Origin: Vicinamibacterales bacterium | GTDB lineage: Bacteria > Acidobacteriota > Vicinamibacteria > Vicinamibacterales > UBA2999 | Assembly (NCBI GenBank): GCA_050250875.1 | Contig: JBFWNV010000001.1 | Span: forward strand, 1,619,891-1,683,890 | Direction: 5' to 3' | DNA length: 64,000 bases | Shown here: one piece after another, positions 440 through 33,865 of the stretch | Layout: the number at the start of each line of letters is the position of its first letter | How positions within the stretch are numbered: the stretch's first letter is position 1 | Made by a program: the position numbers and the translations under genes | Notes under the pieces: generated by a model | The model's input: the letters and a program-made list of their open reading frames with translations, nothing else | What the model was told of the DNA's origin: nothing | Database searches by the model: none

Positions 440-499
440 CACACACCTCAGGCCTCGCCGTCGGCAGGGCGTGGGGGATGATATCGACGGGTCGGGACC

Positions 500-522
500 G
501 GTCAAATACCCTGATGTGGGTA
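500..522 (-). promoter_or_regulatory. Copy A of 7-2-7 inverted-heptamer site with abutting -35 box, oriented toward the MFS gene
   Basis: ggtcaa at 500-505 is TTGACC on the minus strand. The 16-mer TACCCTG-AT-GTGGGTA lies at 507-522. A -10-like TATCAT (complement of 478-483) sits 16 nt from the -35, about 40 nt upstream of the MFS ATG. There is no TTGAC on the plus side of this copy. Confidence 0.5.
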
Positions 523-9311: not shown

Positions 9312-9318
9312 CGCCGGC

Positions 9319-11400
9319 TCACGACGGCAGGCGGAACGCCAGGTACTCGCCGGAATACGCGCCTCCGCTGACGGCGACCACGATGTGCTGGCGTCCGTCG
9401 ATCTGGTAGGTCATCGGCGTTCCGCTCTGCGGCGCCGGCAGGTAGATCGACCCCACCTCCCGCCCGGTCGCCTTGTCGTAGGCGCGCAGCATCGCCCCGC
9501 GGCCGCGACCCGGAATGGCGTTGGTCAAGGGGTCGCCGACGACGATCAGCGTCTTGGTGACCAAGGCGCCCACGGCGCCAGACTGCCCGGTTCGCGGCAG
9601 GTCGACGCCCCTCAGCGCCGGATGGTTGCGGACGGCATCCGGCGTCTCGCCGTGCGGGACCTGCCAGCGGATGTCGCCGGTGTCGAGATCGATCGCGGTG
9701 ATGCGGCCGTACGGCGGCTTCAGCAGCGGCAGGCCGCGGGGGCGGAAGTCGACGTCGATCAGCCGCTCCGAGCCGCCGAACTCGCTGACCGCGGTCGCCG
9801 CCGGTGCTTCGGCGCCGGCGTCTTCGCCCGGTCCGCCGATGTAGCGCACGCCGGTGATCGCGTTGCCCGACACGTAGCGCAGGTCCGAGAACGACGGGTC
9901 CGGCGACGGCATCAGGCCGTACGGCACGAACGAGGTGTAGGACGGAACGATGAGGGTGTGGGTCTCGGGGTCGTAGGCGGCGCCCGGCCAGTTGGTGCCG
10001 CCGGCCGAGCGGAACGCGTGGATCGGTCCCTGGGCTCGGCTCTCGACCGCCGGTGTGAAGATCGGACCGAGCTGGAACTTGCTGGAGACCCGCTCGGCCT
10101 CGGCGCGCAGCTCGGGCGTGAAATCGATGAAGTCCTTGCTTTCGACGCCCTGGTAGTCGTAAGGCTTGGGCTTGGTCGGAAACGGCTGGGTCGGGGCGTA
10201 CCATTCGCCCGGCACCCGGCCGGCAGGCACCGGGCGCTCCTCGATCGGCCACACCGGCTGTCCGGTGACGCGGTCGAACACGTACACCATCGCCTGCTTG
10301 CCCATGACCGCCACCGCCTTGATCGGGCGGTTGTCGACGCGAATGTCGGCGAGAATCGGCGCGGCGGCGATGTCCATGTTCCAGATCGGATGGTGCACGA
10401 GCTGGTAGTGCCACTTGCGCCGGCCGGTCCGCAGGTCGACCGCGACCAGGCTCTCGGCGAACAGATTGTTGCCCGGGCGGTGCCCGCCGTAGAAGTCGGA
10501 GGTCGGCGTCTCGACCGGCAGGTAGGCGACGCCGAGATCCTCGTCCACGGCCAGCTGGTTCCACACGCCGACGTTGCCGGTGGTGCGCCACGAGTCGTTC
10601 AGCCAGCTGTCGTTGCCGAACTCGCCGGGGCCGGGGATGGTGTTGAAGGCCCAGAGCCGACGACCGCTGCGGGCATCGAACGCGTGGACCAGGCCCTTGG
10701 TGTTGCTGGCGCTGCGCGGCGTATGGCCCTCGCGGAACGACGAGCCGACCAGGACGACGTCACCGGCCACCGTCGGCGCGGAATGCAGACCGATCTCGCC
10801 GCTCTCGAGGTCGATCTGCCGGCCGTTGGCCCCGACCACGCCCTGTTTCAGATCGACGATGCCGCCACGTCCGAACGTGCCGATGCGGCTGCCGCTCCTG
10901 GCATCGAGGGCGACCAGCTGATAGCCGGTGGTCACGTAGAAGATGCGCGGCGCGACACCATCGCTCCAGTAGCCCACGCCACGGCCCGACAGCTGGCGTG
11001 GCGACGCCGCCGCCCGCTTGCCCTCGCGCTCCGACGACACCCAGCGCAGCTCGCCGGTCGCTGCGTCGACGGCGATGACCGCGCGGCGGGTGCCGGCCGT
11101 GGTGTAGAGCATGCCGTCGACGACGAGCGGCGTTCCTTCCAGCTTGAACTCGGGGCGTGGGCCGAAGCTGTCGGTCTTTAGCCGCCAGGCCACTTCCAAG
11201 GTCGAGAAGTTGGCGGCGTCGATCTGGGCCAGCGGCGAGTAGTGGTGATTGCGGTTGTCCCCGGCATACGAAGGCCAGGCCCCGTCGGCGGTGCCCCGGC
11301 TGGCGCGCGCCGACCGGGCCGCACCGCCCCCGATCGTCGTGCCGAGCGCGGCGGCGACGACGGCTACCAGCAGACCGTAGCTCAGTCGGGTGGCGTTCAC
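9319..11400 (-). CDS. PQQ-dependent (quinoprotein) dehydrogenase, secreted
   Basis: Track ORF, 693 aa. It has a signal peptide. The sequence WPSYAGDNRNHHYSPLAQIDAANFSTLEVAWR, plus repeated propeller W-motifs, is typical of the 8-bladed PQQ glucose/alcohol dehydrogenase family. Only 10 nt separate it from the upstream UxuA-like gene, so they are probably one operon. Confidence 0.85.
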   Translation of the reverse strand: MNATRLSYGLLVAVVAAALGTTIGGGAARSARASRGTADGAWPSYAGDNRNHHYSPLAQIDAANFSTLEVAWRLKTDSFGPRPEFKLEGTPLVVDGMLYTTAGTRRAVIAVDAATGELRWVSSEREGKRAAASPRQLSGRGVGYWSDGVAPRIFYVTTGYQLVALDARSGSRIGTFGRGGIVDLKQGVVGANGRQIDLESGEIGLHSAPTVAGDVVLVGSSFREGHTPRSASNTKGLVHAFDARSGRRLWAFNTIPGPGEFGNDSWLNDSWRTTGNVGVWNQLAVDEDLGVAYLPVETPTSDFYGGHRPGNNLFAESLVAVDLRTGRRKWHYQLVHHPIWNMDIAAAPILADIRVDNRPIKAVAVMGKQAMVYVFDRVTGQPVWPIEERPVPAGRVPGEWYAPTQPFPTKPKPYDYQGVESKDFIDFTPELRAEAERVSSKFQLGPIFTPAVESRAQGPIHAFRSAGGTNWPGAAYDPETHTLIVPSYTSFVPYGLMPSPDPSFSDLRYVSGNAITGVRYIGGPGEDAGAEAPAATAVSEFGGSERLIDVDFRPRGLPLLKPPYGRITAIDLDTGDIRWQVPHGETPDAVRNHPALRGVDLPRTGQSGAVGALVTKTLIVVGDPLTNAIPGRGRGAMLRAYDKATGREVGSIYLPAPQSGTPMTYQIDGRQHIVVAVSGGAYSGEYLAFRLPS

Positions 11401-11410
11401 GACGGGGCCA

Positions 11411-12514
11411 CTACGCGGCTTCGGCGTTCACGGCCTGCACCATCGCCTTGATGTAGCCGTATGCGAAGGCGAACGCCTGATTGCGTGCCGCTGGATCGTG
11501 GTGCTCGGGCACATGATCCGGGCAGAGCATGTACGGGTAGCCGACGTCGCGCAGCGTCCGCACCACCTGGTAGAAGTCCATGTCGCCGTTGTCGGGATAG
11601 ACCTCCATGAATCGGTCCCATCCGCCCTTGATGTTGCGCAAGTGGACGTTGAAGATCTGTTTGCGGCCGCCGACATAGCGGATGATCGGGTGGATCTCGG
11701 TTCGCGGATCCTTCAAGCCCTCGGCGGTCGAGCCCAGGCACAGGTTGAATCCGTGGAAAGGACTGTCGTAGAGCTCGGCGAACCGCTTGATGCCGGCGAA
11801 GACGTCGGGGCTGTTCCAGCGGGTAATGCCGCGATACCCGGCATGGGTCGGCGGGTCGGCGATGTGGTTGCCCAGCTGCACCTTGTACTCGGCCGCCACG
11901 GGCAGAATGCGGTCGAGCAGATAAGTGATGCGCTCGAACATCATGTCGGCGGTCACCGTACTGGCGATGGTCATCGGCGGGTTGCGCTTCACCGCCTCGT
12001 CGTAGTCCCAGGTGTTGTAGCGGGCGTTGCCCCGCTTCGGATCGGGCGTCCGCCCGGTGCGCAGCATGCCGAGAATCGTCGTGTTGTAGTTGAGCAACCG
12101 GACCCCGGTCTTGCCGGCGACCGAGATCATCTGCTGGACCTGCTCGATGTCGCGGTCGCGCTGCGGGCTCTGTCCGAGCATGATGCTCGGGAACTTGGTC
12201 GACTCGATGCCCTGCGAATGCCACAAATGGTAGGCCTCGAGCTTGATGCCGTACTTGTCGCACGCGTCGCGCTTCCTGAACGAGTCCTCGAGATCCCAGC
12301 CGACGCCGGGAATGCTCTTCGGCTCGTCGCCGTCGATGTTGAAGACGCCGTGGCGGGCCTTGAACTCGAGATTCTCGATGGTGGTACCGCCGGATTGACA
12401 GCCGACGTGCATCGCCGCCCGGACCGGCGATGTGGATTGGGCGGAGACGCGCGCGCCCAGCGCAGCACCGGCCGCCGTGGTCGCGATCGCGTGGCCGAAG
12501 TCTCGGCGTCTCAT
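11411..12514 (-). CDS. Tat-signal mannonate-dehydratase (UxuA)-like TIM-barrel protein, paralog 1
   Basis: Track ORF 11411..12631 trimmed to Met40 (ATG 12514). The N-terminus MRRRDFGHAIATTAAGAALGARVSA is a twin-arginine signal. LPVAAEYKVQLGNHIADPP, IFNVHLRNIKGG and MLCPDHVPEH parallel the E. coli UxuA motifs (VHPDDPP, THLRS, RPDHGH). Confidence 0.75.
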   Translation of the reverse strand: MRRRDFGHAIATTAAGAALGARVSAQSTSPVRAAMHVGCQSGGTTIENLEFKARHGVFNIDGDEPKSIPGVGWDLEDSFRKRDACDKYGIKLEAYHLWHSQGIESTKFPSIMLGQSPQRDRDIEQVQQMISVAGKTGVRLLNYNTTILGMLRTGRTPDPKRGNARYNTWDYDEAVKRNPPMTIASTVTADMMFERITYLLDRILPVAAEYKVQLGNHIADPPTHAGYRGITRWNSPDVFAGIKRFAELYDSPFHGFNLCLGSTAEGLKDPRTEIHPIIRYVGGRKQIFNVHLRNIKGGWDRFMEVYPDNGDMDFYQVVRTLRDVGYPYMLCPDHVPEHHDPAARNQAFAFAYGYIKAMVQAVNAEAA

Positions 12515-12653
12515 CGTAGTGACCTCGTGGTCGTCGTCGCTCGGATGGCCCGCTGGAGCGAGCCGGCGAGAAGCCGAAAGCGAGCTCCAGGCGATTCCGG
12601 CGCATCGGCGGCGATGCGTCGAGCGGGCCACACGATAGCCGAGGCACGCCGGT

Positions 12654-12681
12654 AGTCAATACCCCGATCGAGTTATTGACG
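12654..12681. promoter_or_regulatory. Copy B of 7-2-7 site, flanked by TTGAC on both strands
   Basis: AGTCAA-TACCCCGATCGAGTTA-TTGACG, with the 16-mer at 12660-12675. A minus-strand -10-like TATCGT (complement of 12632-12637) lies 16 nt from the minus -35 and points at the UxuA-like/PQQ dehydrogenase operon. Confidence 0.55.
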
Positions 12682-12715
12682 GGGCGGGAGCGGCGGCGGC
12701 GCCATCGTCGCCCGG

Positions 12716-12742
12716 GTCAATACCCTACTCAGGTTATTGACT
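12716..12742 (+). promoter_or_regulatory. Copy C of 7-2-7 site with -35 box for the cupin gene
   Basis: GTCAA-TACCCTACTCAGGTTA-TTGACT, with the 16-mer at 12721-12736. A -10-like TAGTGT lies at 12760-12765, about 70 nt upstream of ATG 12835. Confidence 0.55.
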
Positions 12743-12834
12743 GTCCCAGGAGCCGAACTTAGTGTCCGAGTTCGCTTCGCACTCGCCCCCGGTGATGGCG
12801 GGTGACGCGGGCGGGTGGACCAGGGAGAACGACG

Positions 12835-13437
12835 ATGCTTAGATCAGGTATCTCGGGGGTGTTGGCAGCCGTGCTCGTCGTTGCCGCCCCCGTCGCACAG
12901 GACTATCAGCCCACCTGCCGAAACTGTCCGGCGACCTACATACCTAATCAGGAGCTCCAGGCCTACATCACCAGGGCCAAGAATCGCGGAATTCTCGACC
13001 AGCAGGTCCGGGCGCTCGACATCGGCAAGATCAACGCCGCGGTTGGCATCGTCCACCGCGGCAAGCTGACCGCCCAGGCTCCCAACTCGGTCGCCGAGCA
13101 CGACCTGGTCGGCGAGGTGTACTACATCCTCGATGGCGCCGGCACCCTGGTGACGGGCAGCGACTTGGTCGGGAAGAAGCGGCGCCCAGCCGACGCCGAG
13201 AACGTCCGAATGCTCAACGGCCCGGGCAACGGCGCGGCGTCGATCCGCGACGGCGTCTCGCACGAGCTGAAGACCGGCGACGTCATCGTTATCCCGGCCG
13301 GCACCGGCCACGTCTTCTCGAAGATCGACGACCATATCACCTACTTGATGCTGCGGCTCGATCCCGATAAGGTGACGCCGCTCAAGACCGAGGCCGATTC
13401 ACGCGCCGATCTGGCCCGCTTCGGCACCAAGCCCTGA
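12835..13437 (+). CDS. Secreted cupin-domain protein
   Basis: Track ORF trimmed to MLRSGISGVLAAVLVVAAPVAQ (signal). The cupin core is HDLVGEVYYILDGAGTLVTG...LKTGDVIVIPAGTGHVF. Confidence 0.7.
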   Translation: MLRSGISGVLAAVLVVAAPVAQDYQPTCRNCPATYIPNQELQAYITRAKNRGILDQQVRALDIGKINAAVGIVHRGKLTAQAPNSVAEHDLVGEVYYILDGAGTLVTGSDLVGKKRRPADAENVRMLNGPGNGAASIRDGVSHELKTGDVIVIPAGTGHVFSKIDDHITYLMLRLDPDKVTPLKTEADSRADLARFGTKP

Positions 13438-13440
13438 GCC

Positions 13441-13459
13441 GGCCGCCGCTAGCGGCGCC
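13441..13459. terminator. Short GC hairpin between convergent stops (weak bidirectional terminator candidate)
   Basis: GGCCGCCGC-TA-GCGGCGCC lies between the cupin stop (13437) and the regulator stop (13459-13461). There is no U-tract. Confidence 0.3.
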
Positions 13460-14094
13460 TATTGCAGGTGGATGATGCCGCGGCGCAACGCCACGGTGAT
13501 TGCGGCCGTGCGATCGTTGACCTTGAGCTTGGTCAGGATGTTGCGGACGTGGACGTGGACGGTCTCCTCGCTGATGACGAGCGCCGCGCCCACTTCCTTG
13601 TTGCGCATTCCCTGTGCTACCAGCTCCATCACCTGCACTTCGCGAGGCGTGAGGGTCGGTCCGCTGGCGCGCGCCGCCAGTTGGGCGGCGACCTCTGGGC
13701 GCACCGGATGACCGCCGGCATGAACCTCGCGAACCACCCGGACGAGGTCCTCGGACAGCATGTCCTTCAGCAGGTAGGTGGTCGCACCGGCCTCGAGCGC
13801 CCGATAGATGTCCTCGTCGCCCTGGTACATCGTCAGGACGATGATCCGGCCGGCCGGATCGATGCCACGGATCCGGCGGATGGCCTCCACGCCGCTGACC
13901 GATCCCAGCTGCAGGTCCATCAGCGTCACGTCGGGCTGCAGGCGCTGGAACATCTCGACCGACGCTTCGCCCGACGCCGCCGCGCCGACCACCTCCATGT
14001 CCGGCTGCCGGCCGATGATGAGCGCGATCCCGTCGCGGACGATCCGGTGATCATCGACGCAGAGTACCCGGATGAGAGGCATGTTCGCCGCCAC
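13459..14094 (-). CDS. NarL/LuxR-family response regulator
   Basis: Track ORF, 211 aa. The receiver domain is IRVLCVDDHRIVRDGIA...DVTLMDLQL, and the C-terminal GerE/LuxR HTH is LTPREVQVMELVAQGMRNKEVGAALVISEETVHVHVRNILTKLKV. Confidence 0.92.
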   Translation of the reverse strand: MAANMPLIRVLCVDDHRIVRDGIALIIGRQPDMEVVGAAASGEASVEMFQRLQPDVTLMDLQLGSVSGVEAIRRIRGIDPAGRIIVLTMYQGDEDIYRALEAGATTYLLKDMLSEDLVRVVREVHAGGHPVRPEVAAQLAARASGPTLTPREVQVMELVAQGMRNKEVGAALVISEETVHVHVRNILTKLKVNDRTAAITVALRRGIIHLQ

Positions 14095-17000
14095 CTACGC
14101 CGCCATGGGGACGATGGCCCGGATGTTGGTGCCGAAATTGACGCGGCTGGCGATCTCGAGTGATGCGCCGATCTCTTCGGCCCGCTCGCGCATGCTGATG
14201 AGGCCGTAGTGTTCGGCGGCGGCCTCGGTCAGCAAGCCGTGGTCGAAGCCGCGGCCGTCGTCGTTCACCTGCAGGGTCACCGCGGTATCGGTGTAGGCCA
14301 GTTCGACGCGGATCAGCGTCGGGTCGGCGTGACGGACGGCGTTGTTGACCGCTTCCTGGCCGATTCTCAGCAGCTCGTCCTCGATCTTGCGCGGGAAGCG
14401 GCGCACGGTCCCGCACACCGAGAACTCGAAGCGAATCGCCCGGTCGGCGGTCAGGTGTTCGCCGGCGTCGCGCAACGAGGCGACGAGGTCGCGGCGGCGG
14501 AGCGGCTGCGAGCGCAGATCGACGATCGACTGGCGGGCCTCGCGGATGTACTCCTCGATCTGCTTGCGCATGCGGACGAAGCTGCGCTGCATGCCCGGTG
14601 AGTTGGTCTCAACGTCGGCAGCGATGGCGTCGAACTGCAGCGCGACGCCGACCAGCCCCTGCAGCAGCGTATCGTGCAGTTCGCGACTGAGGCGGACGCG
14701 TTCGCCGAGGACCAGGGCGAACTGCCCGCGAATCTGCCGCAGGCGCAGCAGCCAGACGCCCCACACCGCCAGCGCCAGGGCCACGACGGCGCCGGCCGTG
14801 AACCAGCTGGTCTGGTAGAACATCGGCGCGATGGCGAAATCAATCGCCGCCCCCGGTTCGACCCAGGTGCCGTCGGGAGCGCTGGCGACGACCCGGAACG
14901 TGTACTGGCGCGGCGGCAGGTTGGTGTAGAAGGCGGTGCGGCGCGTCCCGGCGTCGACCCAGTCGGCATCGAAGCCGTCGAGCCGGTAGAGAAACCGCGT
15001 CCTCAGCGGCGAGCTGAGGTTCAGTTCCGAATATGCGATCTCGACCCGCGTCGTGCGCGCTGGCAGCCGCAGGCCGTTGGCGATCTCCATGCGGGTCTCG
15101 TCGGCAGTGACGTACTCGACGGTGATCGGGTGGCGCGCCGGCGCGTCGCGGAACGCCCTCGGGTCGATCACGCTGAGGCCGCGCGAGGTGACGAACCACA
15201 GCCGGCCGTCGCTGGCCCGCACCACCCGGCGGTTGTTGTTGTAGGCATGGGGCAGGCCGGCCAGGCCGTCCGACCGATCGTAGGAACTGTAAGGAATACC
15301 CGTCGACCGGCCGGCCGCCACCTCGTCGAAATCGTGCCGCGATACGCGCAACAGCCCGAACCCGGTGCCGATCCACAAGGTGTGGACGTCGTCTTCGGCG
15401 ATCGCGGTCAGGTCGCTGACCGGAAAGCCCCGATCGGAACGGACGGTCACGAACCGGCCGTTAGCGAACCTGCTGAGTCCGCCGATGGCGGCCAGCCACA
15501 CCGCGCCCTCATCGTCCTCGAAGATCTGACGGCAGGTGCCCCCGCCGAGACCGTCGGCCGGACCGTAGACCTTGAACGTCCCGCTGCGATCGCGGATGGC
15601 GACCCGGCCGTCGGCCAATGCCGCCCACAGCTGGCCGCGGCGGTCCGTGTAGAGGACCTTGATCCGCACGTCGCCGAACTCCGGTGGCAGAGGTACACGA
15701 CTGACCGCCCCGCGGACCCACCGCCCCAGGACCTGGTTCTGGTCGTAGAGCCAGACACCGCCGGCGAAGTCCGACGCGATGAGGTCGATCTGGGAGAGCG
15801 GGCCGGCCGACAGCGGCGACAGCCGGGTGGTCCCCCCCGGCATCCTGGCGACGTACCGATCGGTGGCGACCCAGATGGTTCCGCGCTCGTCGGCGTGCAT
15901 CGTCCGCAGGCGCGACCCGCTGAGCGGCACCCGCAACGACGGCGACTCGCTGTCGCCGGGCGAGAAGCGGCTCAGGGCGTCGTCGGTGCCCACCCAGACG
16001 TTGTTGTCGGGCGTCATCTCGATGCCGACGACGAAGCCCTGGTCGGTGAGCTGACTGACCCGACGGGGCGTCAGGCGGTTCAGGCCCTCGGTCGTGCCGG
16101 CCCAGATGTTGCCGTCCTTGTCTTCGAGGAGGGCGCCGACGCCGTCGCTGAGCAATCCGGTCAGCGAACTGGCCCGCTCGCTCTGGAACCCGCTCGGGCG
16201 GCGCGGTCGGATTCGCCACAGCCCCTGGCCGATCGTCCCGACCCACAAGTTGCCCCGCCGATCGAGCAGCAGACGGTAGCCGCGGCCACGCTCATCGAGG
16301 TCGAACGGGAGCTGCGCGCTGCCGACGACGTGGAAGCCGGCCGTCCAGTCGTTGACCAGCAGGCGACCGGTCGCATCCTGGACGAACGATCGCGGGAACC
16401 CGCCGACGATGGCCGGCACGCGGCCGGCCGCGTCTTCGGTGAACGAGCGCTGGAACCGGCCGACGAGTCCGGCCTCGGTCGGCTCTTCGGTGTCGGCGTC
16501 GATGACTTCGAGCTGGGTAAAGCTCGACTCGCCGGGTTGTCGACGCAGGATCCCGGTGGCCGTACCGACGTAGAAGCGTCCACTCTGGTCGACGTAGGCG
16601 CTGTAGACCGCCGCCTCCGGCAACCCCTGCGCGGCGCCGACGTGCTGCCAGCGGCCATCGGCGAAGCTGAACAGACCCTTCTCGCCGCCAGCCCAGATGA
16701 CGCCGGCCAGGTCTTCGATCACCACCATGAACGCCGCACCGGGCACGCCCTCGGCCTCGCCGAACGTGCGGATGCCGTCGGGGCGTATCCGCGCCAGCCC
16801 GCCGGCGTTGCCGTAGCCGACCCAGATGCTGCCGTCGCGCGCCGCATGGAGGGCCCGCACCGGCTTCTGTCGGCCCGAGTCGCCGGTCGGCTTCGACGTG
16901 AAGCGCACGCCGTCGAATCGGAGCAGTCCGCCGTCCGACCCGACCCACAGGTAGCCGTCGAGATCCTGCGCCAGCGCCCAGACGTTGCCGTCCGGCAGCC

Positions 17001-17226
17001 CCTCGCGCTGGCTCCACGACGTAATCGTGTAGTCGGTCAGCACGCCGCGGAGATCGGCGGCCGACATCGGTGCGCCTGCGGCCACGAGGACGCCGAGGGC
17101 GAACGCCACGGACAGGGCGCGCAAGTAGATCACAGGCGGCTGCGCGAAGAAGGCCACAAAATCTACTGAAGCTCTTCGATGGCTGTCAATCACCCGAACC
17201 GGGTAGGCCAAGGCGCTCGTTCGCAT
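14095..17226 (-). CDS. Sensor histidine kinase with periplasmic beta-propeller repeats and Y_Y_Y domain (HisKA_3 type)
   Basis: Track ORF 14095..17889 trimmed to Met222 (ATG 17226); the upstream 221 codons are low-complexity and cross the promoter motif. Domains seen: a signal/TM segment, repeated propeller blades (WVGSDGGLLRF, WAGGEKGLFSF, WVGTIGQGLWR, WAGTTEGLNRL), a Y_Y_Y-like domain (FLYRLDGFDADWVDAGTRRTAFYTNLPPRQYTFRVVA), a TM helix, the HisKA_3 box RVRLSRELHDTLLQ and an ATPase domain. Its stop abuts the regulator start. Confidence 0.85.
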   Translation of the reverse strand: MRTSALAYPVRVIDSHRRASVDFVAFFAQPPVIYLRALSVAFALGVLVAAGAPMSAADLRGVLTDYTITSWSQREGLPDGNVWALAQDLDGYLWVGSDGGLLRFDGVRFTSKPTGDSGRQKPVRALHAARDGSIWVGYGNAGGLARIRPDGIRTFGEAEGVPGAAFMVVIEDLAGVIWAGGEKGLFSFADGRWQHVGAAQGLPEAAVYSAYVDQSGRFYVGTATGILRRQPGESSFTQLEVIDADTEEPTEAGLVGRFQRSFTEDAAGRVPAIVGGFPRSFVQDATGRLLVNDWTAGFHVVGSAQLPFDLDERGRGYRLLLDRRGNLWVGTIGQGLWRIRPRRPSGFQSERASSLTGLLSDGVGALLEDKDGNIWAGTTEGLNRLTPRRVSQLTDQGFVVGIEMTPDNNVWVGTDDALSRFSPGDSESPSLRVPLSGSRLRTMHADERGTIWVATDRYVARMPGGTTRLSPLSAGPLSQIDLIASDFAGGVWLYDQNQVLGRWVRGAVSRVPLPPEFGDVRIKVLYTDRRGQLWAALADGRVAIRDRSGTFKVYGPADGLGGGTCRQIFEDDEGAVWLAAIGGLSRFANGRFVTVRSDRGFPVSDLTAIAEDDVHTLWIGTGFGLLRVSRHDFDEVAAGRSTGIPYSSYDRSDGLAGLPHAYNNNRRVVRASDGRLWFVTSRGLSVIDPRAFRDAPARHPITVEYVTADETRMEIANGLRLPARTTRVEIAYSELNLSSPLRTRFLYRLDGFDADWVDAGTRRTAFYTNLPPRQYTFRVVASAPDGTWVEPGAAIDFAIAPMFYQTSWFTAGAVVALALAVWGVWLLRLRQIRGQFALVLGERVRLSRELHDTLLQGLVGVALQFDAIAADVETNSPGMQRSFVRMRKQIEEYIREARQSIVDLRSQPLRRRDLVASLRDAGEHLTADRAIRFEFSVCGTVRRFPRKIEDELLRIGQEAVNNAVRHADPTLIRVELAYTDTAVTLQVNDDGRGFDHGLLTEAAAEHYGLISMRERAEEIGASLEIASRVNFGTNIRAIVPMAA

Positions 17227-17262
17227 CCGTCGGCCCGGGAGGGCGCCCGAAGGCGCAATCGG

Positions 17263-17284
17263 TACCCTGTTGTGGGTATTGACG
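17263..17284 (+). promoter_or_regulatory. Copy D of 7-2-7 site with -35 box
   Basis: TACCCTGTTGTGGGTA-TTGACG. A -10-like TAGTGT lies at 17302-17307, about 105 nt upstream of ATG 17414, in the divergent region shared with the kinase gene. Confidence 0.5.
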
Positions 17285-17413
17285 GCCGATCGGCGCAGCC
17301 GTAGTGTTGGCCAGCCTTTCGGCCACACGCGGGGCGCTCTGCCCACCGAGGACGGGCGTGCGTCGTGCCCGGGCGTGTTCGCCGGGCCTCGGGAGGGTGG
17401 GAGACACGCCATC

Positions 17414-18676
17414 ATGAACAGGCACCTGCGGTCGTACTCGTTCGTCTTGTGCGCGGTGCTGTTGCCCCTGGCAGGACCCGCCGCTTCGATGGCGCAGCAG
17501 GGCCTCAACGCCGGCCCGTCGTCCGAGCTGGTGATGACCCCGACCGGAGAGGTGGTCGGGCCGATCGATCTGGTGACGGCGATCAACCGCTTTCCGCTGG
17601 TCGAGGGCCCCCGTCCGGCCAGAGATATGGTCCCGGGTTGGACCGTGCCCGCCAAGATCGTCGTCAACGTCGACCGGCCCGAGCGGACGCCGTGGCTCCA
17701 GGCGGCGATGCCGCCGGGAGTGACTGTGGTGGGCGTGGCCAACAACCTGGAGAACCAGAAGCACTGGCCAGACGCCGACGCCATCGTCCTCGTCAGCGGC
17801 GCCTGCGGGCTGGAGCACGGGGAAAGCGACGCCGACATGTTCAAGCGCGCCCCGAAGCTCAAGTGGATCCACTCGTCGTCGGGCGGCACCGATCAGTGCG
17901 CATCGGCGACCGAGATCAGGACCGGCAAGATCCTGCTGACCAACAGCCAGAAGGTCAAGAACGACGGTTTGTCGGAGAGCGCTTTCGGCTTCATCTTCGC
18001 GCTGGCGCGCAACGCCGAGGTCGCCTGGGGCAATGCCCAGGGCGGCGCCTTCGGCACGGTTCGGCCGACCCGTCCGGCCAAGTCGCTGCACGGGGCGACC
18101 ATGATCGTCGTCGGCCTGGGCGGCGCCGGCACCGAAATCGCCCGGCTGGCGCACGAATTTGGCATGACGGTGATCGCGACGCGCGCTTCCAGTCGCGAAG
18201 GTCCGCCATTTGTCGAATACGTCGGGCTGGCCCCCGAGCTCCCCAACCTGATCGGCCGCGCCGACATCGTGGTGATTGCCGCGCCGCTGACGCCCGACAC
18301 CAGGGGCCTGTTCAACGCCGAGATGTTCTCGAAGATGAAGCGCGGTGGCATGCTGGTGAACTTCTCGCGGGCCGAAATCGTGGTGCCCGACGATCTGGCG
18401 GCCGCGCTGAGGGACGGGCGCGTTGGCAGCGCCGGGTTGGACTGGGCTTCGGAGCACCCGCTGCCGCCCAGCTCGCCACTCTGGAAGTCGCCGAACCTGA
18501 TGCTCACTGGTTCGCGGGAAACGCCGCGCAGCACCCGTTCCGGCGGCCGCCAGACTAGCAATCCGATCGCGCAGCGCGACGAGGAGCTGCGCTGGGTCCT
18601 GGTGCGGGAGAACATGCGCCGCTACGCCGCCGGCGAGAAGCTTTACTCGGTCTTCGATCCCAAGCGTGGCTACTGA
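17414..18676 (+). CDS. Signal-peptide-bearing D-2-hydroxyacid-dehydrogenase-like protein
   Basis: Track ORF 17270..18676 trimmed to MNRHLRSYSFVLCAVLLPLAGPAASMAQQ (Sec-type signal). It has the Rossmann motif VGLGGAGTEIARLAHEFGMTVIATR. The family-typical C-terminus ENMRRYAAGEKLYSVFDPKRGY is also present. Confidence 0.75.
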   Translation: MNRHLRSYSFVLCAVLLPLAGPAASMAQQGLNAGPSSELVMTPTGEVVGPIDLVTAINRFPLVEGPRPARDMVPGWTVPAKIVVNVDRPERTPWLQAAMPPGVTVVGVANNLENQKHWPDADAIVLVSGACGLEHGESDADMFKRAPKLKWIHSSSGGTDQCASATEIRTGKILLTNSQKVKNDGLSESAFGFIFALARNAEVAWGNAQGGAFGTVRPTRPAKSLHGATMIVVGLGGAGTEIARLAHEFGMTVIATRASSREGPPFVEYVGLAPELPNLIGRADIVVIAAPLTPDTRGLFNAEMFSKMKRGGMLVNFSRAEIVVPDDLAAALRDGRVGSAGLDWASEHPLPPSSPLWKSPNLMLTGSRETPRSTRSGGRQTSNPIAQRDEELRWVLVRENMRRYAAGEKLYSVFDPKRGY

Positions 18677-18704
18677 CGGCTGCGTCTACTGACGAGGGCC
18701 CGGC

Positions 18705-20051
18705 ATGAGTTCGTTCTCCCAACGCGTGTTCAACGTGCATGCCGACGAGGTGGCGCCTCTAGCAGTGGCGACGCTCTACTTTTTCTTCGTCCTCACCGCC
18801 CTGATGGTGCTGCGACCGGCGCGTGACGCGCTCGGAATGAGAAGCGGGCTCGACGCCATCCGCTGGCTGTTCATCGGCACGGCGGCGGTGACGCTGGCGG
18901 TCAATCCGCTGTTCGGGTGGCTGGTCAGCCGCTTCCGGCGCCTCGTCTTCATCACCGCCACCTATGCATTCTTCGCCCTGAGCCTGGTCGGCTTCTACGC
19001 GCTCATCACGATGGCGCCGGCCGCCGTCGGCGAGATCAGCGGCAGGGTGTTCTACGTGTGGTTCAGCGTCTTCAACCTGTTCAGCACGATGGTCTTCTGG
19101 GCGCTGATGGCCGACCGCTTCACGCTCGAGCAGAGCAAGCGGATCTTCGGCGTCATCGCCGTCGGCGGGACGCTCGGCGCCATTGTCGGGCCGTGGCTGG
19201 CGAGTGTGCTGGTCGGGCCGCTGGGAACAGCGGCGATGCTGCTGGTCTCGGCGACGTTCCTGTTCCTGGCGATCGTCGCGGCTTGGGGCGTGGCCTGGCT
19301 GCGCCCGGAACGGACGGCCGAAGCTCAGCGCAGCGGCCCGGTGGAGCCGGCCATCGACAGCGCCGTTATCGGTGGCAACGCCTGGGCGGGCATCGGCGCG
19401 GTGTTCCGGTCGCGCTACCTGCTCGGCATCTCGGTCTACGTACTGGTGATGACCGTGACCGCCACGTTCATCTACTTCACCCGCCTGCAGATGGTCGCCG
19501 CCCTCGGCGCCGACACGGACATGCGGGCGACGGTGTTCGCGCAGATCGACCTCATCACACAGGTGGCGACGCTGGTGCTGCAGGCAGTGGTGACCGGGCA
19601 TCTGATGAGGCGGCTCGGCGTCGCGGTGGCGCTGGCGATCTTGCCGGTGGTCGTTTCGCTGGGGTTCGTCGGGCTGGCCATCGCCGGCTCCTTCGCTGTG
19701 CTCGTCCTGTTCGACGCGACGTTCCGGGCGATTCAACGGGCCATCACCCGGCCGGCTCGGGAGACGCTGTTCACGGTCGTCACGCGGGAAGAGAAGTACA
19801 AGTCGAAGGCGTTCACCGACACCTTCGTCTACCGCGGCGGCGATGTCATCGGCGCCTGGACCGAAGGCTGGCTGGGGCAACTCGGCATGGCGCTGGCCGG
19901 ATTGGCGGCACTGGCGGTACCGCTGGCAGCGTCCTGGGCGGTTTTGGGACTGTGGCTGGGTCGCGCGCAACGTCGGCTGGCCAGCGGCGACCTCCCGGCG
20001 GCGGGCGCCGCCGCGCCAGCCGCCATTCCTGAACAGGCCACCGCGCCGTGA
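18705..20051 (+). CDS. Polytopic carrier, ATP/ADP-translocase-like (TLC/Npt) branch of MFS-fold transporters
   Basis: Track ORF, 448 aa, with about 12 hydrophobic segments. The N-terminus VAPLAVATLYFFFVLTALMVLRPARDALG resembles TLC/Npt-type carriers. This is a family-level call only. Confidence 0.65.
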   Translation: MSSFSQRVFNVHADEVAPLAVATLYFFFVLTALMVLRPARDALGMRSGLDAIRWLFIGTAAVTLAVNPLFGWLVSRFRRLVFITATYAFFALSLVGFYALITMAPAAVGEISGRVFYVWFSVFNLFSTMVFWALMADRFTLEQSKRIFGVIAVGGTLGAIVGPWLASVLVGPLGTAAMLLVSATFLFLAIVAAWGVAWLRPERTAEAQRSGPVEPAIDSAVIGGNAWAGIGAVFRSRYLLGISVYVLVMTVTATFIYFTRLQMVAALGADTDMRATVFAQIDLITQVATLVLQAVVTGHLMRRLGVAVALAILPVVVSLGFVGLAIAGSFAVLVLFDATFRAIQRAITRPARETLFTVVTREEKYKSKAFTDTFVYRGGDVIGAWTEGWLGQLGMALAGLAALAVPLAASWAVLGLWLGRAQRRLASGDLPAAGAAAPAAIPEQATAP

Positions 20052-20110
20052 CCCGGCGCTCGAGCACTACGACCACGAGTCAGCGATTCGACACGGAAGG
20101 GGATGAGGCC

Positions 20111-21424
20111 ATGAAGGAAGTCCTGGAAGCCTGGGAACACAAGCGCGACGTGATGGCGAAGGACCTGGAGTACCAGGAGTACCGAAAGCGCTACAAGAAG
20201 GACCTCGAATACTTCTCGACCAGCGGCAAGGTGTTCTCGCGGCGCACGCTGGGCCGGCTGGCCTTCGGCGGAGCGGCCGCCGCGGCCGTGCTCGGGAACA
20301 TGCGTGCCCTCAACGCCGCGGCCAACGATGTCCTCGCCGACGGCACCGGCGTGAAGCTCTGTCATCGTCCGCTCGGCAACAGCATCAACCCCACCGCCGA
20401 CGATGTCCGCTTCATCAAAGAGGTCGGCTTCAAGTGGTGCTACGGCAACGGGCGCGCCAGGGACGGCAACTTCCTCTCGGTCGACGAGCAGAAGGCCGCC
20501 AAGAAGCGCTACACCGACGCCGGCCTCATCCTGCACAACATCCGCTACATCCTTGGCGGCAAGGGCAACTATGCCCTCAACACCCTGCTGCTCGACCTGC
20601 CGGGCCGCGCCGAGGCGGCCGAGCACCTCAAGCAGTTCATTCGGGCGACCGGAAAGAACGGCGCCGGATTCGACTATACCGGCTCGCGCTTGATGATCAC
20701 CGGCGTCTGGAGCAGCGGGCAGGTGGAGGGCCGCGGCGGCTCGAAGACGCGCCGGTTCGATCCCGCCTCGCCGGACGTCCGCGCCAGCGACTACCTGGGC
20801 GTACTCGACAAGGCTCCGAGACCCGCGTCCGGGCTGAACTCGCTGTATTGGGGCCGCCAGTACAAGTACGAAGAGGTCATGGCCAACTTCAAGAATCACT
20901 TCGTGAAGGAGATCGTGCCGGTCCTCGAGGAAGAGGGCGTCTTCATCGCGTTCCACGGCCCCGACGATCCGCCGGTGTTCGAGAGCCTTGGCGGGGTGTC
21001 GCGCGTGCTGTCCAACTACGAGCGTATCAAGGCGATGTTCGCGGCGGCCAACAGCGCCAACGTCGGCATCCAGTTCTGCGCCGGCAGCTGGAACGAAGGC
21101 GGGCCGCTGATGGGCAAGGACATCCTCGAGGCGCTGAAGGAGTTCGCGGCAGCCAAGAAGTACCGCGAAATCCACTACCGCAACGTCACGAGCCCGCCGG
21201 TCAACGGACAGCCGAAGTTCGACGAGGCGATGGTTGACTCCGGTTACTACGACTACTACAAGATCATGAAGACGGTGGTCGACATCGGATGGGACGGCTT
21301 GGTCCATCTCGACCACTCGCCGGACATGGTCGGGGCGCCATACAGCTACCCGGCCTTCGCCGCCGGCTACATGCAGGCCGCGCTCGCCCGCGCCAAGAGC
21401 TCACCGAAGGGCCAGCTCACTTAG
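20111..21424 (+). CDS. Tat-signal mannonate-dehydratase (UxuA)-like TIM-barrel protein, paralog 2
   Basis: Track ORF 20048 trimmed to ATG 20111 (GGAAGGGGA upstream). A twin-arginine motif FSRRTLGRLAFGGAAAAAVLG begins at about residue 42. IAFHGPDDPP, EIHYRNV and VHLDHSPDM parallel UxuA motifs. An alternative start is GTG 20231. Confidence 0.75.
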   Translation: MKEVLEAWEHKRDVMAKDLEYQEYRKRYKKDLEYFSTSGKVFSRRTLGRLAFGGAAAAAVLGNMRALNAAANDVLADGTGVKLCHRPLGNSINPTADDVRFIKEVGFKWCYGNGRARDGNFLSVDEQKAAKKRYTDAGLILHNIRYILGGKGNYALNTLLLDLPGRAEAAEHLKQFIRATGKNGAGFDYTGSRLMITGVWSSGQVEGRGGSKTRRFDPASPDVRASDYLGVLDKAPRPASGLNSLYWGRQYKYEEVMANFKNHFVKEIVPVLEEEGVFIAFHGPDDPPVFESLGGVSRVLSNYERIKAMFAAANSANVGIQFCAGSWNEGGPLMGKDILEALKEFAAAKKYREIHYRNVTSPPVNGQPKFDEAMVDSGYYDYYKIMKTVVDIGWDGLVHLDHSPDMVGAPYSYPAFAAGYMQAALARAKSSPKGQLT

Positions 21425-21511
21425 TACGCCACCGGGGCCGGCGGCGCCGTCACGCGCTGCCGGCGCCCTGTCCGGTCAGCACGGCCCCATCGATCACGGA
21501 GACGCGAGCGC

Positions 21512-23371
21512 ATGAGCAAGCGGCAGAAGCGCGCAGTCAGCCGGCGCGCGTTCATCAACCAGAGCGCCGCCGCCGGGCTGGGAGCGGCGGCGCTGGCCGG
21601 TGCGGCGACCGAGGCCGGCGCGCAGCCGAGGCGTCAGTGGGATCTCGAAGCCGACGTCGTCGTCATCGGCTCCGGCGCCACCGGCCTTCCGGCGGCAATC
21701 CGCGCCAGGGACAAAGGCGCCTCGGTGATCGTCGTCGAGGCCAACTACGACGTCGGTGGCCACGGCATCCTCAGCGGCGGGAGTCTGCCGCTCGGCGGCG
21801 GCACCAGCTGGCAGAAGCAGCACGGCATCGAAGACTCCCCCGACCAGGTGTTCAAGGATCTGACCGACTGGTCGGTGGTCCTGCCCCACGGCATCGCCGA
21901 CTATCGCTACAACGATCGCGAGGTGCAGCGCGCCTTCGCTGACAACTGCGCAGCGACGTTCGAGTTCCTGATCGCCAACGGCATCGTCGTCAGGCCACCG
22001 GCCTTCGACTCGGGTTCGGTGGGGATCTCGGCGCTGCGGATGTGCGCGCCGGTGCTCGAAGGCGTCAACGTCCCTGGCCCGATGAGCCCGGGCGGCGGTC
22101 GCGGCGCCGCCAACATCAGGCCGCTCGAGGCCAGCGCGCGCAAGAAGGGCGTCCGCTTCCTGCTGAACTACCACATGGACCGGCTGTTCAGGGAGAGCCC
22201 GACCGCTGGCCGGGTGCTCGGCCTCGAAGCCAGCTACAGGCCGCGCTTCCTCCCCGGGTCGACGACGCGCCTGGAGAGCTATCGATCCGAAGGCAATATC
22301 GCCCTCACCCGGCCGACCGTCTCGGTGCGGGCCCGCAAGGCGGTAATCATCGCCAGCGGCGGCAGCTCGAGCAACGCCAACTTCCGGAGAATCTTCGATC
22401 CTCGGCTCACCGAGGAGCATCAGACCGGGGGCGAACCCTATTCGTTCCAGGACGCCAGCGGCGAGCTCGCCGCGATGGCCATCGGCGCGTCGCTGTGGGC
22501 GACGGCGAATGCGTTCGAACGGCGCCGCGTCATCATGAAACGCAACGTCGTCGGCTCGCAGTACACCTACACGCAGTGGGGACCGAAGAGCCCGCTGTTC
22601 CCGTTCTCGCGCGCCAGCGGCATCAACCTCGGCATCGCCGGCTGGGAGCACGTCATCAGCGTGAACCAGGTCGGCAAGCGGTTCTGCGATGAAACGCACG
22701 GCGAGTTGCCGGACGGCACCGGCTACAACTCCATCGACGGCTACGTCCACGGCAGTTTCAGGAACACCAGAGCCAAGCCCCACGCCAATGCCGACGGCGT
22801 GAAGCAGGAGCGGCCGCTCTATGTGCACGCCGCGCTGGCGTTGAACGAAGGCTCCCAGGCCCCCGACTATGCGGCCGGTCCGGTGTGGGTGATCTTCGAC
22901 GCCGACGCGGTGGCGCGCCGGAAGTGGAACGTGGAGCCGCCGTTCGTCGACAAGGAACACGGCTACTTCTTCGCCGCCGACACGCTCGAGGAGCTGGCGC
23001 GCGGGCTGACCAGGAACACGTACCAGAAGGTGCCAATGCCGCCGGCCAATCTCGTCGCCACGGTCGCCCGCTACAACTCGTTCGTCGACCTGGGCAAGGA
23101 CGAGGACTTTGAGAAGCCCGGCCCCAAGCACAAAATCCAGACCCCGCCGTTCTACGCGGCGTGGGGCACGCCGATCTGCCACGACACGGTGACCGGGCTG
23201 CGCATCAACGGCAAGTGCCAGGTCATCGACCTGCACGGCCACGTCATTCCCGGCCTCTACTGCGGTGGTGAGTCGGCGGGGGGCAGCAACCAACACGGCT
23301 GGGGCCGCTGTTCGTGCCAGGGTTACATCTCCGGCGGCAACGCCGCCGACGAGGTGGCGCCCGGCCGCTAG
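21512..23371 (+). CDS. Tat-exported FAD-dependent oxidoreductase (FAD_binding_2 / fumarate-reductase-flavoprotein-like)
   Basis: Track ORF, 619 aa. MSKRQKRAVSRRAFINQSAAAGLGAAALAGA is a twin-arginine signal, and DVVVIGSGATGLPAAIRA is the dinucleotide fold. Confidence 0.85.
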   Translation: MSKRQKRAVSRRAFINQSAAAGLGAAALAGAATEAGAQPRRQWDLEADVVVIGSGATGLPAAIRARDKGASVIVVEANYDVGGHGILSGGSLPLGGGTSWQKQHGIEDSPDQVFKDLTDWSVVLPHGIADYRYNDREVQRAFADNCAATFEFLIANGIVVRPPAFDSGSVGISALRMCAPVLEGVNVPGPMSPGGGRGAANIRPLEASARKKGVRFLLNYHMDRLFRESPTAGRVLGLEASYRPRFLPGSTTRLESYRSEGNIALTRPTVSVRARKAVIIASGGSSSNANFRRIFDPRLTEEHQTGGEPYSFQDASGELAAMAIGASLWATANAFERRRVIMKRNVVGSQYTYTQWGPKSPLFPFSRASGINLGIAGWEHVISVNQVGKRFCDETHGELPDGTGYNSIDGYVHGSFRNTRAKPHANADGVKQERPLYVHAALALNEGSQAPDYAAGPVWVIFDADAVARRKWNVEPPFVDKEHGYFFAADTLEELARGLTRNTYQKVPMPPANLVATVARYNSFVDLGKDEDFEKPGPKHKIQTPPFYAAWGTPICHDTVTGLRINGKCQVIDLHGHVIPGLYCGGESAGGSNQHGWGRCSCQGYISGGNAADEVAPGR

Positions 23372-23410
23372 GACGCCGCGCGGCCTGGCCGCCGGCCGAG
23401 GAGACAGCCG

Positions 23411-24064
23411 ATGGTCCAGAGGCACGGCCAGACGGCACCGCACGCGCCCAGCATCGCCGTCTGGGACGTTCCGTCGCCGGTGGTGGCAGGACGTCCGTTC
23501 ACGCTGAAGGTAGGGGTGACGTGCTCGGCGCGCTGTCAGCTGGCGCAGCACCCGGTCGCCGTCCGCGACGAGAGCGGAGCCACCGTCGGCCGAGGGCACC
23601 TCGGTGCGCAGCCGTGGGCTGGCACCGAGGCCCTGTACTGGGCCGACGTCGACCTCGTGGCCCCGATGGCGACCGGGCTGACGCGCTGGGCCGCCGGTGT
23701 GTCCGGCCACGCGATGGACGAGGCCCACGACGATGCCGCGACGCCTTTCACGTTCGTCACTGTCGCGCCTCCTGCACACCAGGTGACGATCACGGTCACC
23801 GGCGCCGGCACGACGGCACCGATCGGCGGCGCGGACGTCCGCCTGGGCCCCTACCGGGCGGTCACTGACTTCGACGGCGTAGCGACGGTGGACGTGGCCG
23901 CCGGCACCTACGAGCTCGGCATCTGCGCTGACGGCTACGTGGCGCCCGCCGTGACGCTCGACGTGACCGCCGATGTCGCGGTCGTCGTCGACGCCGTGAA
24001 GACTCTTTCTGCCGCCGAGCAGGACGAGCAGTTCGAACGCTGGGAAGCGAGCCAGTGGGGATGA
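23411..24064 (+). CDS. Hypothetical protein with C-terminal carboxypeptidase-regulatory-like (prealbumin-fold) segment
   Basis: Track ORF, 217 aa, GC3-biased, 40 nt after the FAD oxidoreductase gene. I saw no signal peptide. VTITVTGAGTTAPIGGADVRLGPYRAVTDFDGVATVDVAAGTYELGICADGY resembles CarboxypepD_reg-type domains. I do not recognise the N-terminal half. Confidence 0.5.
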   Translation: MVQRHGQTAPHAPSIAVWDVPSPVVAGRPFTLKVGVTCSARCQLAQHPVAVRDESGATVGRGHLGAQPWAGTEALYWADVDLVAPMATGLTRWAAGVSGHAMDEAHDDAATPFTFVTVAPPAHQVTITVTGAGTTAPIGGADVRLGPYRAVTDFDGVATVDVAAGTYELGICADGYVAPAVTLDVTADVAVVVDAVKTLSAAEQDEQFERWEASQWG

Positions 24065-24172
24065 GGCCGTTCGCATCGCCCTTCGACGCGGCCGCGACGA
24101 TGCGTGCGTGCTGCGCACGGCTACCGGGCCGCCCCGGCCGTCGGCGCCTCGGATCCGCGCATTTCCGGCCCA

Positions 24173-24194
24173 TACCCGCTTCAGGTTATTGACG
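24173..24194 (+). promoter_or_regulatory. Copy E of 7-2-7 site with -35 box for the TonB-dependent receptor
   Basis: TACCCGCTTCAGGTTA-TTGACG. A -10-like TTAGCT lies at 24212-24217, about 150 nt upstream of ATG 24364. Confidence 0.5.
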
Positions 24195-24363
24195 GAGTGG
24201 TGCCGTGACCGTTAGCTTCCGATGCCGCGGCAGCATCGTACCGACCTTGACAGGCCGGTAGTGCGGCTCGCCGAGCGATGTCACAGGTGAGGAGGGTCCC
24301 TTGGTGTTCTCGAGTGAGCGGGTGCACGCGGCGAAGCGACCGACAACGAACGAGGTGGCCAAC

Positions 24364-27300: not shown

Positions 27301-27319
27301 GCAGTCCGACTGAACCGAC

Positions 27320-27358
27320 GAGCCGGCGGCAGGAGGTAAGCACTCCGTCCGCCGGCTC
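27320..27358 (+). terminator. Stem-loop after the receptor gene (terminator candidate, no U-tract)
   Basis: GAGCCGGCGG (27320-27329) pairs perfectly with CCGCCGGCTC (27349-27358). The 19-nt loop contains an inner GGAG/CTCC stem. The structure starts 20 nt after the stop codon. Confidence 0.45.
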
Positions 27359-27380
27359 GCTGCGTCCGTAAGCTCCCCTG

Positions 27381-33791: not shown

Positions 33792-33865
33792 TGGCTGGGA
33801 CGCAGGGATTCGAACCCCGATAACCGCGTCCAGAGCGCGGTGTCCTACCGTTGAACGACGTCCCA
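33792..33865 (-). tRNA. tRNA-Gln (anticodon CTG), CCA encoded
   Basis: I folded the cloverleaf by hand on the minus strand. Acceptor stem TGGGACG/CGTCCCA; D arm GTTC-AACGGTA-GGAC; anticodon arm CCGCG-CTCTGGA-CGCGG; variable loop TTAT; T arm CGGGG-TTCGAAT-CCCTG; discriminator G; CCA. It is 74 nt, and the U1-A72 pair is typical of bacterial tRNA-Gln. Confidence 0.9.

Follow-up and report, generated by a model that had tools for sequence, protein, structure and literature searches.

Genes and palindromes at the locus

The subject of this analysis is a window of 64 kilobases (kb; G+C content 69.5%) from the metagenome-assembled genome of a soil bacterium of the Vicinamibacterales (Acidobacteriota), to which all window counts and scans refer, and in particular a palindrome of 16 nucleotides (nt) that recurs in it around the genes of a two-component system, a sensor histidine kinase and a response regulator. 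An original prediction had taken five copies of this element, with the promoter boxes beside them, as the mark of a candidate regulon, and the proposal is supported by chance statistics, by conserved spacers, by linkage to promoters and by co-occurrence with the regulator/kinase pair. The five transcription units that it listed stand as predicted targets, and the kinase/regulator operon is added to them through a sixth site. The genes of the locus, assigned by Pfam and NCBIfam profile matches, are as follows:

1-439, minus strand: 5' part of a major facilitator superfamily (MFS) transporter gene (MFS_1, 2e-13), which runs off the window; predicted target
620-1600, plus strand: LysR regulator gene, divergent from the MFS gene, with operator O1 in the spacer between them
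9319-11400, minus strand: gene of a soluble pyrroloquinoline quinone (PQQ)-dependent dehydrogenase; predicted target, in operon 9319..12514
11411-12514, minus strand: gene of a UxuA-like TIM-barrel protein; predicted target, in operon 9319..12514
12802..13437, plus strand: gene of a cupin-domain protein with a signal-peptide-like N-terminus, likely start ATG 12835; predicted target
13459..14094, minus strand: response regulator gene, REC and GerE/LuxR helix-turn-helix, NarL/FixJ family; proposed binding protein
14095..17133, minus strand: sensor histidine kinase gene, with signal peptide, Reg_prop beta-propellers, Y_Y_Y, HisKA_3 and HATPase_c, likely start GTG 17133
17414..24064, plus strand: five-gene operon for a D-2-hydroxyacid dehydrogenase, an MFS transporter, a second UxuA-like protein, a flavin adenine dinucleotide (FAD)-binding oxidoreductase and a hypothetical protein; predicted target
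24301..27300, plus strand: TonB-dependent receptor gene with a CarboxypepD_reg N-terminal domain, likely start ATG 24364; predicted target

The cupin gene adjoins the regulator gene on the opposite strand, and the same arrangement is found in relatives.

The pattern TACCCNNNNNNRGKTA gives seven strand matches at five places in the window, against 0.01 expected from 100 dinucleotide-preserving shuffles, none of which reached seven. All five 16-mers of the original prediction are present and their coordinates are exact, but their number has to be raised to six. The additional copy (17190-17205, minus strand), TACCCGGTTCGGGTGA followed by TTGACA at 17205..17184, surfaced once mismatches were allowed, and a weight matrix built from the gene-facing sites likewise returns six operator places in the window and no others, the rest scoring at most 12 bits (as 22-mer) or 9 bits (as 16-mer). 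The putative operators, listed without strand, are:

507..522: operator O1, TACCCTGATGTGGGTA, a perfect 5-6-5 palindrome
12660..12675: operator O2, TACCCCGATCGAGTTA
12721..12736: operator O3, TACCCTACTCAGGTTA
17190..17205: operator O4, the sixth site, TACCCGGTTCGGGTGA read on the minus strand
17263..17278: operator O5, TACCCTGTTGTGGGTA, with a perfect palindrome core
24173..24188: operator O6, TACCCGCTTCAGGTTA

Their conserved core is TACCC-N6-GGGTA (sometimes TAACC/GGTTA), that is, strictly 5-6-5 within a 7-2-7 register. The consensus heptamer of NarL is TACYYMT, in a 7-2-7 arrangement; positions 1-5 of the heptamers found here (TACCC) match it, while positions 6-7 are variable and asymmetric. 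The inverted heptamers originally described are thus correct as to register, with conservation confined to the outer five positions. All six sites are intergenic, in the spacers 440-619, 12515-12834, 17134-17413 and 24065-24363, which are the four largest of the first 27 kb and together make up roughly 4% of it. An independent repeat finder returned a 27-nt family at 12654, 12715, 17257 and 24167 with no longer repeated flanks, and since the similarity is confined to about 27 nt, the element is not the remnant of a mobile element. Nor is it a terminator, given a stem of only 5 base pairs (bp) and no run of T.

Predicted promoters and conservation of the spacers

On its gene-facing side each palindrome is joined to a TTGAC that we take as the -35 box of a promoter. 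Operator and TTGAC adjoin without a gap (0 nt) at five sites of the window (O2-O6) and are 1 nt apart at O1, which reads TACCCACATCAGGGTA-T-TTGAC with one extra T before the -35, so that the direct abutment claimed for every copy fails at 507. The predicted promoters are:

478..505, minus strand: MFS gene; -35 TTGACC 505..500, spacer 16 nt, -10 TATCAT 483..478
12632..12659, minus strand: UxuA-like/PQQ-dehydrogenase operon; -35 TTGACT 12659..12654, spacer 16 nt, -10 TATCGT 12637..12632
12737..12765, plus strand: cupin gene; -35 TTGACT, spacer 17 nt, -10 TAGTGT
17160..17189, minus strand: kinase/regulator operon; -35 TTGACA 17189..17184, spacer 18 nt, -10 TAGATT 17165..17160
17279..17307, plus strand: 17414-24064 operon; -35 TTGACG, spacer 17 nt, -10 TAGTGT
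24189..24218, plus strand: TonB-dependent receptor gene; -35 TTGACG, spacer 18 nt, -10 TAGCTT (or 17 nt, TTAGCT)

The -10 hexamers quoted in the original prediction are where it had placed them, and its spacing of 16-17 nt widens to 16-18 nt, the -10 of the receptor gene being either TAGCTT at 18 nt or TTAGCT at 17 nt. With the -35 box taken as -35..-30, the 16-mer takes up -51..-36, which puts its centre at -43.5, in agreement with the earlier value of about -43, of which the description as class-II-activator-like is an interpretation. Transcription would start about 7 nt past the -10 hexamers. A generic sigma-70 scan of 9000-28000 independently returned the kinase and UxuA promoters, the former being the best sigma-70-like match in that interval (10/12 consensus matches). 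The one transfer RNA (tRNA) gene of the window, that of the glutamine tRNA (tRNA-Gln), is preceded by a promoter-like site, TTGCCG-N18-TATATT (33887-33916), and a consensus of the sigma-70 kind thus seems to be valid in this organism. This tRNA-Gln (CTG anticodon; 33792-33865, minus strand) is also the only Rfam or ARAGORN match in the window and, as the Rfam search gave nothing but a tRNA, the leaders of 60-130 nt hold no known riboswitch.

In order to compare the spacers with those of relatives, a large protein database was searched with the regulator, which gave many homologues of 65-92% identity; their contigs, together with 80 metagenome loci, make up 660 kb of related DNA, and the comparison with the loci of P0036 and P0056 and with the P0003 contig of 12.8 kb was by gene table only. 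The database copy of the regulator itself (P0001) is an identical protein, annotated four residues shorter than the 211 amino acids delimited here. The Vicinamibacteria among the relatives were recovered mostly from soil and rhizosphere metagenomes. A scan of a genome collection with the kinase found distant relatives only (at most 28% identity, mostly Bacteroidota, Ignavibacteriota and Pyrinomonadaceae), and these loci, 7/80 of which carry the operator motif, are uninformative for footprinting.

In syntenic loci, where the regulators are 75-92% identical, the palindrome is found in the matching spacers (cupin/UxuA, 2-hydroxyacid-dehydrogenase/kinase, regulator/PQQ-dehydrogenase and cupin/TonB-receptor) while the flanking sequence diverges. 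The closest loci keep the gene order, the kinase/regulator pair being flanked by cupin, UxuA-like, PQQ-dehydrogenase, TonB-receptor and 2-hydroxyacid-dehydrogenase genes. Their sites are distributed as follows:

L081, L082, L083 and L172: two operators each in the cupin/UxuA spacer
L084: two operators between the 2-hydroxyacid-dehydrogenase gene and the kinase gene, with an equivalent of O4 upstream of the kinase
L085: one operator between the regulator and PQQ-dehydrogenase genes
L087: two operators between the cupin and TonB-dependent receptor genes

In L172, whose regulator is 92% identical, the two sites are 60 nt apart, compared with 61 nt in the window, and the -10 TATCGT is kept. When five cupin-side promoters are aligned, the operator/-35 block (TACCCT.C.C.GGTTATTGAC) and the TA of the -10 are invariant against a mean column identity of 61%. 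Across the 660 kb there are 28 perfect copies of TACCC-N6-GGGTA, against about 0.8 expected, and 27 copies with at least 8/10 core matches that abut a TTGAC, against about 0.55; the mononucleotide-shuffle control overestimates TA-containing words, and these comparisons are therefore conservative. The link to promoters was also seen in this DNA, since a TAnnnT lies 16-18 nt past the TTGAC in 13/24 unique operator-abutting cases and in 11/814 of the other TTGACs (Fisher p = 4e-16). Four of the 11 operator-abutting TTGACs that have no TAnnnT are inner TTGACs of double-flanked sites.

Such double flanks exist in the window at 12.7 kb, where inner TTGAC/GTCAA flanks (12676-12680 and 12716-12720) turn both sites into 26-bp palindromes. 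The presence of TTGAC on either side had been reported correctly; a promoter role for the inner copies is not borne out, as no -10 hexamer stands behind them (12676, plus strand; 12716, minus strand). They could be a duplication relic or could provide extra affinity. We also considered whether TTGAC is part of a longer, 26-bp palindromic operator, and ruled this out because most sites carry it on the gene-facing side only and because the inner copies are without a -10. Moreover, the inner flank is not TTGAC in L087 or at the second L081 site. TTGAC is therefore an element of the promoter, has a direction, and does not prolong the palindrome.

These observations bear on whether the element is regulatory at all. 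Short palindromes repeated in intergenic DNA could also be dispersed elements (of the repetitive extragenic palindromic or miniature inverted-repeat transposable element type), structural hairpins or a chance recurrence. We regard this as very improbable, given the chance expectation of 0.01, a repeat of no more than about 27 nt, the lack of any Rfam match at the sites and a position that keeps its relation to orthologous genes and to both promoter boxes (-35 and -10) across diverged loci, unlike that of such dispersed elements.

The regulator, its kinase and the assignment of the sites

The product of 13459-14094 is, by its domains, clearly a response regulator of the NarL/FixJ family. Its receiver domain (Pfam Response_reg, 2e-25) keeps the phospho-acceptor aspartate (LMDLQL/LLDLNM) and the lysine of YLLKD when compared with NarL, and its C-terminal domain is of the GerE type (2e-21). 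It has full-length matches to the structures of VraR, NarL, DesR and DevR, of which VraR (E = 2e-40) and NarL (E = 1e-38) are the best. However, the scores fall below the equivalog cut-offs for MadR (156.9 bits versus 300), NarL (153.8 versus 250) and NarP (138 versus 343), and in the alignment the base-contacting Lys188, Val189 and Lys192 of NarL correspond to His, Val and Arg. By these comparisons the protein is the orthologue of no named regulator, including NarL, and the term NarL-type, as first applied to it, holds for the family only.

A HisKA_3/HATPase_c kinase gene lies immediately upstream and abuts the regulator gene, and the same pairing is found in all related loci. The placement of both genes amid the marked units had been recognised correctly; the kinase start had been put at 17226, and GTG 17133, which is directly followed by a signal-peptide-like segment (VIYLRALSVAFALGVLVAAGA), is most likely the true one. 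The upstream start is rejected, since O4 and its promoter would then fall inside the coding sequence. The shorter version is preferred also because the called orthologues have 1006-1025 amino acids and because the start lies 58 nt past TTGAC in L084, compared with 56 nt here. With O4 and its promoter upstream of the kinase gene, autoregulation of the system is implied.

The sensor part of the kinase consists of Reg_prop (9e-36) and Y_Y_Y (6e-12) domains, and its periplasmic portion resembles the sensors of Bacteroides hybrid two-component systems (PDB 4A2L, E = 7e-34; 3V9F, E = 7e-23). Similarity to NarQ and NarX extends over the HisKA_3/ATPase core only (residues about 800-1010), and the regulator is thus not paired with a NarX/NarQ-type partner. 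The kinase polypeptide stops after HATPase_c, the regulator being a separate REC and GerE protein. The signal is probably a periplasmic carbohydrate or sugar acid, judging from the sensor type and from the genes of the locus, which encode TonB-receptor, MFS, PQQ-dehydrogenase, UxuA-like, 2-hydroxyacid-dehydrogenase and FAD-oxidoreductase proteins.

As to which protein binds the palindromes, the kinase/regulator pair adjoins operator sites in every related locus, and profile searches of the window found no second regulator of the GerE type; apart from this one, just two regulators were seen there, the LysR protein and a sigma-54 activator of the XylR type (43611-45389). Paralogous regulators, 65-75% identical, have related palindromes in the same TACC...GGTA frame beside their own genes. 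Recognition helices of the related regulators were located by tblastn, and the residue aligned with Lys188 of NarL was found to covary with position 5 of the half-site, which is C in 17/18 cases for His-type and in 4/20 for Gln-type regulators (p = 3e-6), a statistic that ignores shared ancestry and is therefore suggestive rather than proof. The share of C is intermediate for Pro- and Lys-type regulators (L081-L171), and the regulator of the window is of the His type. The sites had been ascertained on TACC/GGTA only, so that position 5 was free to vary.

Binding by some other factor, that is, by the LysR-type protein 620-1600 near O1, by a NarL-type paralogue encoded elsewhere or by an unlinked factor, is improbable in the light of these data. 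O1 does lie in the spacer between the MFS gene and the divergent LysR gene, but five of the six sites are not beside a LysR gene, and in the related loci that keep the sites no such gene is listed, although all carry the kinase/regulator pair. In addition, the usual LysR box is T-N11-A, unlike the T-N14-A spacing seen here. A paralogue would be favoured by the core TACC...GGTA that regulators of 65-75% identity share and by one genome that has at least two such systems; the covariation of the recognition-helix residue with the operator speaks for the regulator of the same locus instead.

That genome is represented by L089 and L090, which are on one contig of 780 kb (see also L088), and holds at least two paralogous pairs of a propeller/Y_Y_Y kinase and a NarL-type regulator. 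Their regulators are 75% and 69% identical to that of the window, and each pair adjoins a CarboxypepD_reg TonB-dependent receptor gene, which suggests an expanded family of locus-specific sensors. In L122, L125-L128, L130 and L132, which have Lys-type regulators, a nearly invariant TACCCCACGTTGGGTA (TACCCCAGGTTGGGTA in L128) lies about 30-70 nt past the stop codon of the regulator gene. No TTGAC abuts these copies, so that the fusion of operator and -35 is a trait of the His-type subfamily rather than a general one.

Taken together, our preferred reading, to which we assign a probability of about 0.72, is that the six TACCC-N6-GGGTA elements are operators of the adjacent NarL/FixJ regulator, which would bind as a dimer at about -43.5 and most likely activate the six promoters. 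The kinase (14095-17133) would sense its ligand, probably the carbohydrate or sugar acid, outside the cytoplasm through its beta-propeller/Y_Y_Y sensor and phosphorylate the regulator, which after phosphorylation would bind each palindrome as a dimer. Placed directly upstream of the TTGAC -35, the dimer would most likely help RNA polymerase to start transcription, as NarL does at yeaR of Escherichia coli. The responding genes would be those of two transporters (the MFS transporter and the TonB-dependent receptor), the UxuA-like/PQQ-dehydrogenase operon, the periplasmic cupin and the five-gene oxidoreductase/dehydratase operon, and the kinase/regulator operon would itself respond through O4, giving positive feedback.

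Some further features of the window were noted. The PQQ-dehydrogenase-like protein (9319-11400) scores 335 bits on the model of the membrane-bound glucose/quinate family (cut-off 833) and 200 bits on that of the 'acido-empty-quinoprotein group A' (cut-off 650), and its binding of PQQ is only putative. The XylR-type activator (XylR_N, V4R, Sigma54_activat, HTH_8) adjoins a molybdenum hydroxylase gene (45912-48260), and the same region has a cytosine/purine permease gene (49137-50561) and an amidase gene (50596-52797); the whole of 43611-52797 has the look of a catabolic unit of its own, for N-heterocycles or aromatic compounds. A second TonB-dependent receptor, of the classical type (Plug and beta-barrel; 56178-58292, minus strand), has as neighbour a di-haem cytochrome c peroxidase/MauG-like gene (54461-55705), and no operator copy was found near that region (54461-58292).

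Comparison with known systems and wider meaning

At the yeaR promoter of E. coli, one 7-2-7 site with its centre at -43.5, immediately before the -35, is enough for activation by NarL (PMC10853779), and at ogt the NarL sites are at -44.5 and -77.5 (PMC10853779; PMC7419079). The system described here similarly combines a REC and GerE regulator with a HisKA_3 kinase and has a 16-bp inverted repeat, in 7-2-7 register and starting with TAC(C/Y)(C/Y), directly upstream of the -35; as at yeaR there is a single dimer site, centred at about -43.5 by the predicted promoters. Given this equal geometry, the system most likely works like NarL at yeaR. It differs from the NarL system in its sensor, which is of the beta-propeller/Y_Y_Y kind and not a NarX-type nitrate sensor, and in its targets, which are transport and oxidation genes instead of nitrate respiration genes. 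In the activation complex solved by cryo-electron microscopy, NarL reads bases through Lys188, Val189 and Lys192 and contacts the C-terminal domain of the polymerase alpha subunit through Lys174, Arg178 and Arg179, sigma region 4 being left untouched (PMC10853779). Val189 is kept in the regulator of the window and Lys192 is conservatively replaced by Arg, whereas other features depart from NarL, among them heptamer positions 6-7, which are unconserved here.

Activation rather than repression is what this comparison points to, and repression from the same position is the principal rival. The same protein at the same sites could be a repressor or a dual regulator that blocks alpha-subunit or upstream contacts at strong TTGAC promoters and is released on signal, a possibility that we consider unlikely, albeit one that deserves attention, as the -35 boxes are near consensus and two of the three alpha-contacting residues of NarL are not conserved. 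On the other hand, in all 24 operator-abutting cases the operator is wholly upstream of the -35 and set off from it by a fixed 0-1 nt, in keeping with stereospecific recruitment, while repressors as a rule cover part of the -35, the -10 or the start site. Weak -10 hexamers (TAGTGT, TAGCTT, TATCGT) also speak against repression, as does activation from this geometry at yeaR and ogt. Moreover, where a two-component system controls uptake or catabolism, the loci are usually induced by activation.

Several points nevertheless weigh against the regulator as the activator of these promoters, besides the shared ancestry that the covariation leaves uncorrected. The main doubt on activation is the near-consensus TTGAC itself, since activator-dependent promoters usually have a poor -35, and that of yeaR is described as intrinsically weak. 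The base-contacting Lys188 of NarL is replaced by His and, although Lys174 is kept, the alpha-contacting Arg178 and Arg179 are both Ala; the contacts between NarL and polymerase cannot be transferred to this system, and in this phylum the polymerase may rely on others. Finally, paralogous regulators in the same genomes share the core palindrome, and another paralogue could use these sites.

The closest counterpart of the sensor is found in the hybrid two-component systems of the polysaccharide utilisation loci of Bacteroides thetaiotaomicron, which have homologous periplasmic Reg_prop propellers and Y_Y_Y domains (PDB 4A2L/4A2M). Like these, the present system adjoins a TonB-dependent receptor gene and catabolic genes, and such systems are present as several paralogues per genome. 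It differs in that kinase and regulator are separate, with a GerE/LuxR-type output in place of a fused REC and AraC, in that no SusD-like gene was seen at the locus, and in belonging to the Acidobacteriota. As to the ped/exa/erb systems of Pseudomonas, we know of no relationship of their sensor kinases and operator sequence to those described here. These are LuxR-type two-component regulators of PQQ-dependent dehydrogenases (PMC12997753), and the likeness to them is that a NarL/FixJ-family regulator would control the gene of a periplasmic PQQ-dependent dehydrogenase.

More tentatively, and as a possibility that we hold to be less likely to be true as a whole than not, the related loci could be read together as follows. 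Soil Vicinamibacteria would carry an expanded set of 'split' hybrid-type sensors, each a propeller/Y_Y_Y kinase with a separate NarL-type regulator, as a counterpart of the regulators of polysaccharide utilisation loci in Bacteroidetes. All paralogues would share the operator core TACC-N8-GGTA, fused to the -35 as a portable operator-promoter cassette in the His-type subfamily, and they would be kept apart by the residue equivalent to Lys188, which would read position 5 of the half-site (His with C, Gln with T or G).

Searches of the literature on Vicinamibacteria and other Acidobacteria returned no paper that deals with transcriptional regulation or with two-component systems of this kind. 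Since the design has already been solved for NarL of E. coli, the finding extends known biology and does not overturn it: the operator and promoter regulon of a NarL/FixJ two-component system with the -43.5 architecture of yeaR is an ordinary kind of regulon, and as such it is well supported. The locus offers a concrete regulon candidate, with a defined operator, six predicted promoters and a candidate regulator and sensor, and, to judge from the related loci, this design appears to be repeated in a large family of paralogous systems beside TonB-dependent receptors. If true, this would be the first promoter and operator grammar for an abundant and poorly studied soil phylum, and it would help to predict which uptake and oxidation loci answer to which sensor and would offer a simple candidate residue-to-base rule of specificity.

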